A DNA stretch of 5,543 nt, taken from positions 1 through 5,543 of IMG/VR virus record IMGVR_UViG_3300020030_000330; one strand, 5' to 3'. Below the pieces are notes generated by a model. It did not search any database and was not told the origin of the DNA. It worked only from the letters and a program-made list of their open reading frames with translations. The position numbers were made by a program, and so were the translations under genes. The DNA comes from a virus. Of this stretch, positions 41 to 5,511 are shown piece by piece (position 1 is the first letter of the stretch; every line of letters starts with the position of its first letter).

Positions 41-86
41 TTTTCTTTCTTCGTATATTGCCGCCAATAAGATGAAAGAAAGAAAA
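41..86 (+). promoter_or_regulatory. Long imperfect hairpin in the main non-coding region. A polypyrimidine arm pairs with a polypurine arm, and a small hairpin sits inside the loop.
   Basis: TTTTCTTTCTT (41..51) pairs over 11 contiguous bp with AAGAAAGAAAA (76..86), and C52-G74 pairs after a 1-nt bulge. Inside the loop, TATTG (56..60) pairs with CAATA (65..69) around a CCGC loop. Confidence 0.5.
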
Positions 87-89
87 TTT

Positions 90-1695: not shown

Positions 1696-3297
1696 ATGGC
1701 AAATCGTAATTTATTCGGCTCTACGCCGATACAAGTTCCTAATCGTTCTGGTTTCGACTTGTCGCACGAGAATATGCTCACACTTAAGTGTGGTCAGCTC
1801 GTGCCAGTTATGACAGACCTCCTTATCCCTGGTGATAGGGTAAGTGTCGGTTCTGCTTTCGAGATTCAGTTGCCTCCTATGGCGACTGATTTCTACGGTC
1901 GTGTTCGTTTCAAAATGGAGGCTTTTTTTGTGCCTTGTCGCCTTCTTTACGGCGGTTGGCAAAAGTTTATGACTTCGCCTACTGGTAACAATGCTCCTTC
2001 CGCTGTTTCTGTTGGCTCGATTCTTCCGTTTTGTGTTGTCCCTGCTGAAAATGCTTCTATTCTTGGTCGTGCTTCCCTTGCTGATTATCTCGGTTATAAA
2101 GGTACTGTAAATACTCGTCAGCGTATTAATAATATATTGCGCTTTGTGGCTTATCATAAGATTTACGATGATTGGTACCGTGACTCTCGCATTCAGAAGC
2201 CAGTATTTGACGAGGCTGTGCCAGTTAATTCTTCCGTTGGTGCTATTTCTGTTGCTAATCTTCCTTATCAGGGTGTAAATGGTGATTCCTTTACCTATGG
2301 CACTGCAACGAAATTCGCCGATGGTGTTGACCTTTTCAGTCTTCGTCAGCGTAATTGGGCTCGTGACTATTTTACAAACGCCACACCTCTTCCACAAGCC
2401 GGTACAGGTGCTTCTTTGTCTTTTGATGTTGCTGATAATTCTGGTTCTTTTACTATTGCTTCTCTTCGTGCTGCCAATTCTTTACAACAGTGGTTGGAGC
2501 GTAATAATATTGCCGGCAATAGATATGCTGACCAAATTAAGGCTCATTTCGGTGTTATGCCTTCAGATGCTGTTACTCAGCGAGCTATCTATTTAGGTAG
2601 TTCTTCGAGTGTTATTTATAATCATTCGGTCTATCAGACTAACAATATGGGTGATGTTGTCGGTGATGGTGCCCCGAACCCTTTCTCTTCTGTAGGTTCT
2701 AAGTATTCTGCCCCTATCGGTTCTGATAAATCTTCCCTTGTTGGTGATTTTTCCGTCACTGAATTCGGTTACCTTATGGTTATCGGTTCTATCGTTCCTG
2801 ACGCTGTTTATGCGACTGGCGTTAACCGTGATTTCTTCCGTTTACAGATTGGTGATTTTGCTTTTCCTCTGCTTCAGGGCGTTGGCGACCAACCTATTTA
2901 TAAGGCTGAGTTGGCTAATGTTGGTGTAGATGGTAATACGATGGATGCTATGGAAACTTTCGGCTATACTCAGCGTTTCGCAGAGTATAAATTTATGGAG
3001 GATGAAGTTCACGGTGGCCTCTGTGATGGTCAATCGCTTTCTTCTTTTGCTCTTAAGCGTTCTTTTGGTACTCTTCCTAATACTGCCCTTGGTGCCTCGT
3101 TCTTGGAGATTCCAGTTGACTATCTTGATGATGTTGCCGCCTCATCTAGTGCGTTGCCTTCTTCTTATGGTGCTTGGGCTGATATTTTCTTCCAGTATCG
3201 CAAGACTTCAGTTCTTTCCTCTTACACTATACCTACTTTAGGCGACCCTCATAACACACACATTGAAACCGTTCCAACTGGTGGTCGTCGTCTTTAA
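1696..3297 (+). CDS. VP1: Microviridae major capsid protein VP1 (F-protein family), 533 aa.
   Basis: The N-terminus ...NRSGFDLSHENMLTLKCGQLVPVMTDLLIPGDRV is the hallmark start of gokushovirus-type VP1/F capsid proteins. The size is typical, the codon bias is strong, and it starts 12 nt after the VP4 stop. Confidence 0.93.
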   Translation: MANRNLFGSTPIQVPNRSGFDLSHENMLTLKCGQLVPVMTDLLIPGDRVSVGSAFEIQLPPMATDFYGRVRFKMEAFFVPCRLLYGGWQKFMTSPTGNNAPSAVSVGSILPFCVVPAENASILGRASLADYLGYKGTVNTRQRINNILRFVAYHKIYDDWYRDSRIQKPVFDEAVPVNSSVGAISVANLPYQGVNGDSFTYGTATKFADGVDLFSLRQRNWARDYFTNATPLPQAGTGASLSFDVADNSGSFTIASLRAANSLQQWLERNNIAGNRYADQIKAHFGVMPSDAVTQRAIYLGSSSSVIYNHSVYQTNNMGDVVGDGAPNPFSSVGSKYSAPIGSDKSSLVGDFSVTEFGYLMVIGSIVPDAVYATGVNRDFFRLQIGDFAFPLLQGVGDQPIYKAELANVGVDGNTMDAMETFGYTQRFAEYKFMEDEVHGGLCDGQSLSSFALKRSFGTLPNTALGASFLEIPVDYLDDVAASSSALPSSYGAWADIFFQYRKTSVLSSYTIPTLGDPHNTHIETVPTGGRRL

Positions 3298-3307
3298 TCT
3301 TGTTCAT

Positions 3308-3335
3308 TCCAAGGGGCTTTGTCCCCTTGGATTTT
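3308..3335 (+). terminator. Hairpin with a short T-tract just after VP1. It is probably a partial intrinsic terminator or an mRNA-stabilising hairpin.
   Basis: TCCAAGGGG (3308..3316) pairs over 9 bp with CCCCTTGGA (3323..3331), the loop is CTTTGT, and TTTT follows at 3332..3335. It lies 11 nt downstream of the VP1 stop. Confidence 0.6.
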
Positions 3336-3366
3336 ACTATGTAATTTGATAAATTTACTTTGAATT

Positions 3367-3681
3367 ATGATACAAATATGTAATTTCGACAAAGTTCGTG
3401 ACGTTCAAGAGCACGTTCCTTCTCTCGCCACCGACTTGAATAAGGCTATTGAGACAAACACTGTTCAAGATACTGGCGTTGTCGCTGATTTTAATTCCAT
3501 TGAAGAGCCTAACGCTATAACTGGTCGTGTTTCAGATGCCTTTGAGGCTATAGACGCTCAGCGTGCAATTCTAGCTGCCGGTAAGGCTGCTAAGTCTAAG
3601 GCTGACGCTGCCGCCGCTGCTGCTGCCGCCGCTGCTGCCGCTGCTAAATCCGTGTCATCTTCAAAAGACGATGTTCTCTAG
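3367..3681 (+). CDS. Small acidic hypothetical protein, 104 aa, with a C-terminal 13-residue poly-Ala tract. A scaffolding-like role is possible but unproven.
   Basis: Open frame between VP1 and VP2 on the coding strand. I count 15 D/E against 10 K/R. The A13 run is flanked by Lys/Ser-rich sequence, and I recognise no family. Confidence 0.6.
   Translation: MIQICNFDKVRDVQEHVPSLATDLNKAIETNTVQDTGVVADFNSIEEPNAITGRVSDAFEAIDAQRAILAAGKAAKSKADAAAAAAAAAAAAAKSVSSSKDDVL
3607..3645 (+). repeat. GCY trinucleotide tract encoding Ala x13, built from a tandemly duplicated 15-nt unit.
   Basis: GCTGCCGCCGCTGCT occurs at 3607..3621 and again at 3622..3636. It is followed by GCCGCTGCT (3637..3645), which equals the last 9 nt of the unit. 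Confidence 0.85.
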
Positions 3682-3692
3682 AACGAACATCG

Positions 3693-3728
3693 AAGCGCAC
3701 TATATATACTTGATAATATAGTGCGCTT
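3693..3728 (+). other. Perfect 13-bp inverted repeat (hairpin) between the 104-aa ORF and VP2.
   Basis: AAGCGCACTATAT (3693..3705) is the exact reverse complement of ATATAGTGCGCTT (3716..3728), and the loop is 10 nt. Only one extra T follows, so it is not a canonical intrinsic terminator. Confidence 0.6.
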
Positions 3729-3755
3729 TGACACATAACAATAAATCAATTTGTT

Positions 3756-4793
3756 ATGAAAGTAGAATATCATAGTTCTGTAGAAAATAATAAAGGCCTT
3801 TTCCGCAATATCGGTAAAGGTTTAGGCGGTCTTTGGAAAGGTGTCGAAAGTCTTTGGAATCGCATAACTGGCCGTGGTCAGACTAAGGCCGAACGAGCTG
3901 CTCAGGATTTCTCCGCAAATCAGGCTCAAATCAACCGTGAATTTCAGTCTGCTGAGGCTCAGAAGGCGCGTCAGTGGCAAGAGGATTTTTATACACAGTA
4001 TCAGAGTCCTCAGGCTCAGGTTCGTCAGTATCAGGATGCTGGATTGAATCCTGCGTTAATGTATGGTCGTGGTGCTACTCCTGCTGCTTCTGCTTCGGTT
4101 GCGTCTAATGGTCCTTCTGGCGATACTGCCTCCGGTGTTGTTGCCCCTGCTGACCCTTCTTCCTTGCTTAATTTGGTCTTTGGAATGGCAAAGTTGCCTT
4201 CAGAGATTGACCTTCTTAATGCTCAGGCGGATGATTTCCGCGCCGCCGCTACTGGTAAGAATATTCAAAATGCGTACTCACCTCAGATTTTTGATCAAAA
4301 CCTTCGTAAAGGTGAAATGGATATTCTTAACACTTCCGCCGCTATAACTACTGCTCAGTATCAATGGGCTTTGATGTCTTCTCAGGAACAATTGAACACT
4401 ATTAAGACTTTGCTTACAGAAGCTGAAATTTCAGATGTTCTTGCGTCTGCGTCTTTGAAGGAAAAGCAAGCCGCTACAGAGGTTCTCAAACAGTCTAATC
4501 TTGAGGTTACAAATGACTTAATAGCCGCTCAGATAGCCACGGAGAAGATGCGTCCTCTTATGGTTGCCGCTCAGTCTGTTCTTGCACGTAATCAAGGCAC
4601 TTCTATTTCTTTGGATAATTTCCAAAAGGAGTTGACAAATGAAGTTTCTCGTAATACTGGTATTGCCGCTCCAAAGAATTTCTGTGAATTGCTATTTAAG
4701 ACTACGGGAGAATTCGCTCGGAGAGTTGATAATGGCATATCTACTGCAAAGAACTGGCTTACAAAAACTGGCAAACGCTTGTTGAAGTTATAG
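3756..4793 (+). CDS. VP2: Microviridae minor capsid / DNA pilot protein VP2, 345 aa.
   Basis: The Gln-rich segment FSANQAQINREFQSAEAQKARQWQEDFYTQYQSPQAQVRQYQDAGLNPALMYG (about nt 3903..4067) contains the AGLNP motif typical of gokushovirus-type VP2. The remainder looks coiled-coil-like, and the gene sits after VP1 as expected. Confidence 0.85.
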   Translation: MKVEYHSSVENNKGLFRNIGKGLGGLWKGVESLWNRITGRGQTKAERAAQDFSANQAQINREFQSAEAQKARQWQEDFYTQYQSPQAQVRQYQDAGLNPALMYGRGATPAASASVASNGPSGDTASGVVAPADPSSLLNLVFGMAKLPSEIDLLNAQADDFRAAATGKNIQNAYSPQIFDQNLRKGEMDILNTSAAITTAQYQWALMSSQEQLNTIKTLLTEAEISDVLASASLKEKQAATEVLKQSNLEVTNDLIAAQIATEKMRPLMVAAQSVLARNQGTSISLDNFQKELTNEVSRNTGIAAPKNFCELLFKTTGEFARRVDNGISTAKNWLTKTGKRLLKL

Positions 4794-4825: not shown

Positions 4826-4921
4826 ATGGGATTTTGGATAATGCTTGTCGCTTTGTTTGCAGTGTGTATTTATTTACCTTACAAACTATTATCAAAATTT
4901 ATTGACAAATGGAAAAAGTGA
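4826..4921 (+). CDS. Candidate small membrane peptide, 31 aa (MGFWIMLVALFAVCIYLPYKLLSKFIDKWKK). It is not in the supplied ORF track.
   Basis: I translated this by hand: ATG at 4826, TGA at 4919..4921. It has a hydrophobic N-terminal stretch of about 17 residues and a Lys-rich tail. It overlaps the next ORF's start (4909) by 13 nt in a different frame, an arrangement typical of translational coupling. Confidence 0.35.
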   Translation: MGFWIMLVALFAVCIYLPYKLLSKFIDKWKK

Positions 4922-5319
4922 TTGAATTACTTTCTTCGTGGCTTAAGTCCGCCCCTAAATGGGTTAAAGTTGTTGCGCCGCTCGTAATCGCTGGATTAGT
5001 CGCCATCTACCTCCTTTCTTCTTGTAGTGCTATCCATCACTTGGAGGTGGAACGGCGACAGACAAGAGAGATTAAGGACACGTCTTCGGTTCGTCTCGTT
5101 TCGTCAGTTTGTAAACGGACTACTGTAATCCGACTCGCCCGCGTGCGCTCTCTCCCCTATTCCGCCACGACAACCACGGCCGCAAGGCCGCTCGTAACCC
5201 AAGAAGCGGCCGCTCCTGCGGCCGCTGGAACTCAGGCGGCAACTGCACGCCGGTGTATCCATGCCCCAGCTGATCGCACATGTGCCGTAGTGACAAGTTT
5301 CTTGATGCCCTCGCTGTGA
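4909..5319 (+). CDS. Hypothetical 136-aa protein with a signal-peptide/lipobox-like N-terminus. The C-terminal half lies inside the GC-rich island, so its extent is uncertain.
   Basis: The N-terminal region carries K13/K17/K20, followed by the hydrophobic stretch VVAPLVIAGLVAIYLL and then LSSC (Cys39, nt 5023..5025), which fits the lipobox pattern [LVI][ASTVI][GAS]C. The downstream part is Arg/Ala/Thr-rich, and its codon usage departs from the T3 bias of the core genes. Two minus-strand frames are also open across this stretch, so openness alone is weak evidence here. Confidence 0.4.
   Translation: MEKVIELLSSWLKSAPKWVKVVAPLVIAGLVAIYLLSSCSAIHHLEVERRQTREIKDTSSVRLVSSVCKRTTVIRLARVRSLPYSATTTTAARPLVTQEAAAPAAAGTQAATARRCIHAPADRTCAVVTSFLMPSL
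5080..5105 (+). repeat. Short degenerate pentamer array (TCGKN) at the left edge of the GC-rich island.
   Basis: ACGTC T TCGGT TCGTC TCGTT TCGTC. There are four phased 5-nt units at 5086..5105 and a related ACGTC at 5080..5084. Confidence 0.4.
5177..5190 (+). other. 5-bp GC hairpin closed by a GCAA (GNRA-type) tetraloop.
   Basis: CGGCC (5177..5181), GCAA loop (5182..5185), GGCCG (5186..5190). Confidence 0.5.
5205..5226 (+). other. Perfect 9-bp hairpin formed by two NotI-type palindromes.
   Basis: AGCGGCCGC (5205..5213), TCCT loop (5214..5217), GCGGCCGCT (5218..5226). Confidence 0.65.
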
Positions 5320-5351
5320 GGCGTTAGCCCTTATCGAGGGCATCAATGAGC
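5297..5351 (+). other. Long hairpin at the right end of the GC island, spanning the stop codon of ORF 4909..5319.
   Basis: TTGATGCCCTCG (5302..5313) pairs perfectly over 12 bp with CGAGGGCATCAA (5335..5346). After one C/T mismatch, four more pairs follow (5297..5300 with 5348..5351), two of them G-U. Inside the 21-nt loop, GGC (5320..5322) pairs with GCC (5327..5329). Confidence 0.6.
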
Positions 5352-5356
5352 GAAAG

Positions 5357-5389
5357 AAATTGTGCTTGCTTGCAAGTGCAATTTTTTTT
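5357..5389 (+). terminator. Rho-independent terminator closing the + strand transcription unit.
   Basis: ATTGTGCTTG (5359..5368) pairs with CAAGTGCAAT (5373..5382) in a 10-bp stem with loop CTTG. Two of the pairs are G-U and form only in + sense RNA. A run of 8 T (5382..5389) follows immediately, and AAA precedes the stem. Confidence 0.75.
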
Positions 5390-5511
5390 GATTATTGATG
5401 ACCTATTCCCTGGAGATTTTGTATGACAAGGTACCTCTGAAAATCAACGCTTTGCATTCGTTCCTTGTTTTTATAAATAATAAATTATAATAATTTTAAT
5501 TATCAAAAAGT
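5390..5511 (+). promoter_or_regulatory. AT-rich non-coding region that continues into 1..162 across the circular junction. It probably holds the promoter and/or origin, but no motif could be pinned down.
   Basis: With 33..162 it forms the only long gene-free stretch. It is extremely AT-rich at 5470..5525. TATAAT-like hexamers occur at 5486..5491 and 5517..5522, but without convincing -35 partners. I found no Bacteroidota-type TAnnTTTG motif. Confidence 0.3.

Follow-up and report, generated by a model that had tools for sequence, protein, structure and literature searches.

Why does an AT-rich phage genome carry a GC-rich, densely folded stretch across the end of one of its genes, and is this stretch kept for the protein it encodes or for the structure it forms? 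The locus lies in the IMG/VR virus record IMGVR_UViG_3300020030_000330, of which the whole stretch of 5,543 nucleotides (nt) was analysed (here called the window); the window comprises a full microvirus genome, circular and 5511 nt long, plus a terminal redundancy of 32 nt. The island in question, at 5131-5351, overlaps the 3' part of a 136-aa open reading frame (ORF) and is followed by an intrinsic terminator. Based on the comparison of homologous loci, the island is a selected secondary-structure element of the plus strand that lies over a mostly dispensable ORF tail.

The island had been singled out in the original prediction for its composition, and this description held: at 63.3% GC it is the highest of all 221-nt segments of the genome (mean outside the island 41.5%, standard deviation 4.5), and the T3 codon bias of its reading frame is indeed lost (0.21, compared to 0.46-0.58 in the core genes). 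The four stem-loops described there were all recovered in place, with the terminator after them. The fold of 5106-5400 was better than 200/200 dinucleotide shuffles (z = -5.45 as RNA, -4.16 as DNA), and the lowest free energy among 120-nt segments genome-wide was that of 5131-5250 (DNA parameters), with 3631-3780 as the sole comparably structured zone elsewhere in the genome. A second GC peak of ~53-54% (52.9% for the 221-nt segment at 3424) reflects a poly-Ala stretch, in which 13 Ala codons run in a GCTGCC-type repeat (3597-3645) near the end of a 104-aa ORF; the run is also found in the L009 homologue.

Base pairing within the island

Sixteen distinct nucleotide copies were fetched, and the alignment used for structure comprised 15 sequences. 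The architecture predicted from it by RNAalifold consists of a first hairpin, a long-range helix enclosing hairpins 2 and 3, a variable spacer, a fourth hairpin and the terminator, with the following parts:

5145..5157, plus strand: C-rich motif GCGCTCTCTCCCC, unpaired; columns 22-33 of the alignment are nearly invariant across the 15 homologues
5177..5190, plus strand: hairpin 1, CGGCC-GNNA-GGCCG, of the cGNNAg mini-hairpin type, with an invariant stem and a GCAA loop in the window
5200..5205 with 5299-5304, plus strand: long-range helix 2, CAAGAA paired with TTCTTG, closing the multibranch domain
5205..5226, plus strand: hairpin 2, AGCGGCCGC-NNNN-GCGGCCGCT, a perfect 9-bp stem with a variable loop and covariation
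5226..5261, plus strand: hairpin 3 in its extended form (helices 4 and 5), TGGAAC...GT-ATCCA around GGCGGC-AACT-GC(A)CGCC (inner part 5235-5251)
5263..5298, plus strand: variable spacer with the last ORF codons, showing neither codon periodicity nor conserved pairing
5299..5346, plus strand: hairpin 4, an inverted repeat with a 10-12 bp stem TTGATGCCCTCG/CGAGGGCATCAA (perfect 12 bp at 5302-5313 / 5335-5346)
5351..5390, plus strand: intrinsic terminator hairpin with a T8 run, ending the late transcript

Lacking a T run, hairpins 1-4 are not terminators; the combination that defines an intrinsic terminator was found at 5351-5390 with its T8 alone, which is also the best-conserved stretch of the region (nucleotide diversity 0.05). 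At the apex of hairpin 4, the ORF stop codon lies within a GTGA loop and a mini-hairpin GGCG-NN-AGCC is formed (GCGTTAGC, 5321-5328). The GCGCTCTCTCCCC motif, for which RNAalifold predicted no conserved pairing, is kept although the surrounding codons (75-97) are near-neutral as protein. Short palindromes reported as over-represented (CAGCTG, GATC and GCACATGTGC) are present, but all fall within 5263-5298, where conservation among homologues is lowest, and are therefore probably there by chance.

Covariation among the homologues was strong. Across the predicted stems, 97.7% of cells were paired, and double-sided changes occurred at 8 pairs, compared to 1.4±1.1 in shuffles (0/500) and to 1-3 when the partners were slid by 1-3 columns. 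Three of the loci (L019-L021) had been chosen on account of hints of covariation in their proteins; when the statistics were repeated without them, the remaining 12 sequences still gave 6 pairs with double changes (1.1±1.0 in shuffles; 0/1000). Covarying stems, which the original prediction had raised as a possibility, are therefore present with or without these loci.

Hairpin 2 by itself accounts for seven independent exchanges at 5/8 pairs: G-C to C-G in L004, a change to T-A in L011, C-G to T-A in L016, changes to A-T in L017 and L021, to T-A in L019 and to A-T in L020. Helix 2 is paired in 96.6% of cells and includes one A-T to T-A exchange with G·T intermediates, helices 4 and 5 of hairpin 3 are 98-100% paired with one compensatory G-C to T-A change (L016) and one G·T (L011), and helix 6 of hairpin 4 shows a C-G to T-A exchange (L011) together with G-C/G-T/A-T alternation. 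Where sites are paired, nucleotide diversity at codon positions 1/2/3 was.05/.06/.12, and where they are unpaired it was.27/.27/.33, so that conservation in the island follows base pairing above all.

The changes also reveal which strand folds. One-sided changes leave a G·T on the plus strand at 14 pairs and a C·A at 2, which shows that folding takes place in the plus strand (or its mRNA copy). All genes of the genome are on this strand (Rep 709-1683, capsid 1696-3297, pilot 3756-4793), which in Microviridae is the strand packaged in the virion.

The reading frame and the distribution of the island

A coding explanation has to be weighed against base pairing, since the island is largely translated:

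4909..5319, plus strand: 136-aa ORF, with a conserved N-terminal part of ~75 aa and tail codons 75-136 supplied by the island

More than 120 homologues of this ORF were found (133-136 aa, 70-88% identity). The ratio of non-synonymous to synonymous differences per site (pN/pS) was 0.27 for codons 1-74, 0.75 for codons 75-97, 0.38 for codons 98-118 and 0.75 for codons 119-136, and diversity at codon positions 1/2/3 changed from.15/.07/.32 in codons 1-74 to.25/.22/.24 in codons 119-136. Of the codon-like substitution pattern that would have marked 5131..5319 as ordinary coding sequence, some protein constraint at codons 98-118 is left, with nearly neutral change on either side. Within that segment (5200-5262) the frame is maintained throughout, first and second codon positions outside the stems are conserved, variation in the stretch GTQAATARRCI is mostly at third positions, and synonymous diversity is halved (pS 0.216 vs 0.401). 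Some homologues stop at codon 117/118. An exhaustive HMMER search found that distant family members have only residues 1 to ~75 in common, followed by unrelated tails. In an AlphaFold 2 model built on a shallow alignment, residues 1-40 form a confident helix, the predicted local distance difference test score is <50 for residues 56-136, and no secondary structure is present past residue 78. Judged by its substitution pattern, the ORF is a real gene with a clean coding signature only in its N-terminal half; the tail encoded by the island is clade-specific, largely unconstrained as protein and predicted to be disordered, with residual constraint at about codons 98-118. The ORF would simply extend through a stop-poor, GC-rich element.

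That the island is ordinary coding sequence, i.e., that a GC-rich tail rich in Ala, Thr and Arg (for example a basic, DNA-binding one) is what is selected and the hairpins are incidental or maintained by template switching, is consequently quite improbable. It would account for a frame kept through codon 117 in all homologues, for indels in multiples of three, and for the third-position variation and low pN/pS around GTQAATARRCI. It does not explain why the tail is absent in distant family members and shortened in some close homologues, why pN/pS rises on both sides of codons 98-118, or why third positions are conserved 2.6 times more strongly in stems than in the N-terminal part. Several of the compensatory changes are moreover non-synonymous, replacing Ala on the two sides of the stem by Val and Thr, Glu or Asp and Ser, Ser and Asp, or Thr and Val, respectively. 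Of the proposed acquisition of a foreign coding segment, the maintained frame and some constraint at codons 98-118 remain, but the tail is mostly near-neutral and predicted to be disordered, and no donor was found among the genomes searched. The suggestion that the tail acts as a J/VP5-like basic DNA-binding protein was not borne out, as the ORF matched nothing in Pfam or PHROG, no homology to J or VP8-like proteins was seen, and distant family members lack the tail. Distant DNA and tblastn searches of GenBank phages returned no relative of either the ORF or the island. The locus is a clean case of overlapping constraints in which DNA pairing overrides protein sequence, and it cautions against annotating long ORF tails over GC-rich islands in ssDNA (single-stranded DNA) phages as functional protein domains.

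As predicted, three reading frames are open across the island (one on the plus strand, two on the minus strand). Genes in the minus-strand or alternative frames were rejected, as extra stops occur in several homologues (by a frame-approximate count).

The conserved N-terminal part (4909-5130) has a signal/transmembrane segment forming a hydrophobic helix, an LSSC or CTSC lipobox-like motif (LSSC with an invariant Cys39) and a basic R..TR..DTT stretch, and may on these motifs be a lipoprotein. Members of its family occupy the last gene position in various microviruses, among them further prophages such as L022. Directly upstream, a 31-aa hydrophobic ORF (MGFWIMLVALFAVCIYLPYKLLSKFIDKWKK, 4826-4920), the stop codon of which overlaps the 136-aa ORF at its start (ATGGAAAAAGTGA), is found in all close homologues but L017; the two genes could encode a pair of small membrane proteins acting in lysis or exclusion.

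The distribution of the island bears on whether it belongs to the phage at all. It is carried by >120 protein clusters from JGI, ENA, Logan and NCBI assemblies as well as by prophages. Scans of 185,579 species-representative genomes in GTDB with a protein pattern and an island DNA pattern gave no match, i.e., neither a host donor nor a prophage, and pattern scans of IMG/VR and of JGI metagenomes found three loci each, those in IMG/VR all being these microviruses. An assembly chimera, or foreign GC-rich DNA inserted recently by horizontal transfer, has only the compositional jump in its favour and is effectively refuted: the many independent assemblies argue against the former, and the confinement of the pattern to these microviruses against the latter.

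Two distant relatives carry comparable regions that are not alignable with the island. In L022, a region of 55-70% GC lies at 6160-6640 (fold z = -10.4), and in L025, GC reaches 55-62% over ~3140-3300 and the fold of 3095-3420 has z = -7.0. Both regions start directly after the conserved N-terminal domain and run up to terminator-like hairpins, beyond which very AT-rich intergenic DNA follows. In L025 the structured region is mostly 3' of the stop codon and therefore non-coding, which also speaks against selection on a protein tail. The feature that persists at this locus is a hairpin-dense GC island, translated or not. L025 and L026 are identical over the ~340 nt compared and hence uninformative for covariation.

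A candidate complementary-strand origin and its rivals

The island may well be a hairpin cluster that resists single-stranded DNA-binding protein (SSB) and acts as a complementary-strand origin, similar to the oric of phages G4 and alpha3 and not homologous to it. An ssDNA element of this kind was among the explanations offered in the original prediction and has become the best supported of them, through the covariation, the plus-strand G·T changes, the loop types and the likeness to G4 and alpha3. On entry of the single-stranded genome into the cell, its AT-rich DNA would be coated by host SSB, which would be unable to melt GC-rich hairpins capped by DNA mini-hairpin loops (cGNNAg and GCGNNAGC). 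The exposed structure could then be recognised by primase, PriA or RNA polymerase of the host, and an RNA primer for complementary-strand synthesis would be laid there, as at the G4/St-1/alpha3 origin.

The oric regions of G4, St-1, phiK and alpha3 (Microviridae, Bullavirinae) are likewise hairpin clusters on the viral plus strand and GC-enriched relative to the genome; in G4 and alpha3, the origin hairpin includes a GCGNNAGC mini-hairpin and lies beside the end of a transcription unit. Inspection of the two genomes showed that in G4 the annotated origin and primer fall between genes, in a stretch of 136 nt with 58% GC (genome 45.7%) and with GCGAAAGC at 3977 in the primer region; the alpha3 counterpart has 58.5% GC (genome 45.2%), with GGCGTTAGCC at 5048. 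Experimentally defined microvirus minus-strand origins are therefore also GC-enriched hairpin islands with a mini-hairpin motif, and GGCGTTAGCC at 5320-5329 of the window is the same 10-mer as in the alpha3 oric hairpin. Hairpin I of the primase-dependent complementary-strand origin is described as holding GCGAAAGC in G4 and GCGTTAGC in St-1 and alpha3 (PMC13037366). Unlike these origins, the island is larger (~170-260 nt, four hairpins plus terminator), multibranched, overlapping an ORF rather than intergenic, and found in a phage of gut Bacteroidales. In origins of the G4/alpha3 type, the start triplet of E. coli DnaG, 5'-CTG-3', lies just 3' of hairpin I, and SSB plus DnaG suffice for priming; DnaG of Bacteroidales may use another triplet. 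A distant blastn of the whole genome against GenBank phages gave no Bullavirinae match.

Folded ssDNA that recruits host priming in a strand-specific, orientation-dependent manner is also known from the phiX174 PriA/n' site and from the single-strand origins of rolling-circle plasmids and filamentous phages. The island has no sequence similarity to these sites, and no CS-6 or RSB motif was established in it. Closer in the type of evidence are hairpins of two groups of small microviruses, the reekeekee- and roodoodooviruses, which are conserved, show compensatory substitutions and have been suggested as negative-strand origins (PMC9865509). As with the island, that proposal is computational, combines nucleotide-level conservation with compensatory changes and assigns the same tentative, uncertified role, but those hairpins are one or two short intergenic ones, whereas the island is GC-rich in an AT-rich genome, partly translated and equipped with mini-hairpin loops. 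Because conserved hairpins have already been proposed as microvirus minus-strand origins, the island is not a new category.

Loop chemistry leans towards DNA mini-hairpins over RNA GNRA loops. GCGNAGC and GCGNNAGC (any N) are extraordinarily stable mini-hairpins as DNA and much weaker as RNA, according to a 2026 review, and are bound poorly by SSB (PMC13037366). The GGCG-NN-AGCC mini-hairpin at the apex of hairpin 4 is present in 15/15 sequences, with NN being TT, TC, AT, AC, CA or a single A (GCGAAGC), and the hairpin 1 loop varies as GCAA, GTGA, GACA, GGTA, GATA, GGCA, GCTA, GTAA and GTTA. Across a set of 120 proteins, the codons of this loop encode D-R in 52 (GAYA, pyrimidine at loop position 3) and E-R in 2 (GARA, GNRA-type). 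L022 has 7 GCGN(1-2)AGC / CCGN(1-2)AGG motifs within 481 nt, compared to 1.6 expected (P = 0.0004) and 2 in the rest of its plus strand.

Several observations weigh against a role as complementary-strand origin. Homology to the G4/alpha3 origin is limited to one 10-mer, the NN of which varies within the family, and the mini-hairpin enrichment is significant in L022 alone (P ~0.1 for the window and L025). The excess of Asp over Glu encoded by the hairpin 1 loop could be due to the amino acid itself, compensations within quasi-palindromes can come from template switching instead of selection, and the frame kept through codon 117 makes conservation partly protein-level. Two other hairpins, at 3686-3733 and after the capsid gene at 3308-3331, offer alternative priming sites. 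Finally, covariation cannot separate DNA from RNA because mRNA and virion strand have the same sequence, and all of it fits RNA equally.

This last point makes an RNA-level element at the 3' end of the late mRNA the main rival, which we consider possible, if doubtful. It could protect against 3' exonucleases, aid termination or give rise to a 3'-derived small RNA, and it fits with the position of the island inside the transcript directly upstream of a strong intrinsic terminator, with the RNA fold (z = -5.45), with G·U intermediates being well tolerated in RNA and with the GNRA-type GTGA and GCAA loops; phiX174 mRNAs are known to carry 3' stabilising sequences. Against this, the hairpin 1 loops are mostly GNYA and not GNRA, a single terminator hairpin suffices for 3' protection so that ~200 nt of extra structure needs another reason, and the conserved GCGN(1-2)AGC class combines exceptional stability as DNA with a much lower one as RNA (PMC13037366). 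Rfam 15 gave no match within 5100-5400 of the window even at E <=10, save a chance mir-392 match on the terminator, and none for four related loci at the gathering threshold. The structured RNA of the original prediction thus retains the argument of identical mRNA sequence and loses that of loop motifs and of a known RNA family.

Other roles for folded ssDNA, such as an accessory for Xer-mediated single-strand integration (as in CTXphi), a condensation or packaging signal, or a site where rolling-circle synthesis pauses or ends, appear unlikely. The plus strand being the one that folds suits them, as does a dif-like integration site ~250 nt downstream in a phage that encodes no integrase (PMC3091885). 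However, the att core lies outside the island and is itself palindromic, no second dif-like sequence was seen in the island by eye (no search was made for one), and the lytic relatives G4 and alpha3 use similar islands for priming. Microviridae packaging is not known to depend on a pac hairpin.

For temperate Bacteroidales microviruses, the island is a concrete candidate for a complementary-strand origin, defined to the base pair and accompanied by natural compensatory mutants. In the human gut, microviruses rank among the most abundant phages, but the copying of the single strand into a double strand, with which each of their infections begins, is not known to have been mapped in any but coliphages. 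A bolder version would see a new origin class in these temperate microviruses, with analogous, non-homologous elements in relatives, a priming mode unlike direct DnaG, the PriA primosome or RNA polymerase, and a second life as translated sequence with coupled amino-acid changes; this is speculative and we think it improbable.

The alternative hairpin at 3686-3733 is a candidate for the plus-strand origin cut by Rep. It is a perfect hairpin GCGCACTATAT/ATATAGTGCGC with loop ATACTTGATA, situated between the 104-aa ORF and the pilot gene, and has the strongest ssDNA fold of the genome (z = -10.7). The loop resembles the phiX174 nick region, CAACTTG^ATATT. A motif TACTTGAT.ATATAGTGCG.(A/T)TTGACAC (the window form ends ATTGACAC) recurs in L022 at 4828-4860 and in L025 at 1681-1712, and 3697-3756 matches the otherwise unrelated GenBank microvirus OQ686963.1 with 83.6% identity. 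The island itself is unlikely to be a plus-strand origin, as its loops vary and this better conserved candidate is present.

Prophage context and neighbouring features

Prophage copies of the same lineage occur in Bacteroidales contigs, inserted between a SusC/SusD pair and ffh. Their junctions map to window ~88-112, where a palindromic dif-like att core (TTTTGTTAAAGTGCCCGTTTAACAA) is duplicated at both ends:

88-112, window: att core
5174-5200 and 10688-10712, L004: att core copies at the prophage junctions
5159-5185 and 10689-10713, L008: att core copies at the prophage junctions

This agrees with the Xer/dif integration hypothesis put forward for Bacteroidales microvirus proviruses (PMC3091885). 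The island lies near the right prophage end, upstream of and outside the att site, and the junctions place it within the phage, so it is phage DNA; a role of the island as attP was ruled out on the same grounds. A loss of rep in some prophages was considered and dropped, as L004 and L006 are 100% identical. Adjoining the att core, an inverted repeat CTTTTCTTTCTTC ... GATGAAAGAAAGAAAA (window 41-88) is kept in all relatives.

A scan of the window for tRNA and tmRNA found no gene, and the nearest GenBank phages in the whole-genome blastn have only capsid fragments in common with it. L009, a 2.6-kb metagenome contig, is collinear with the family until ~window 5288, just past hairpin 3; beyond the collinear part, its first 600 nt (1-600) resemble no fetched locus, and this junction could stem from recombination, a different integration context or misassembly.

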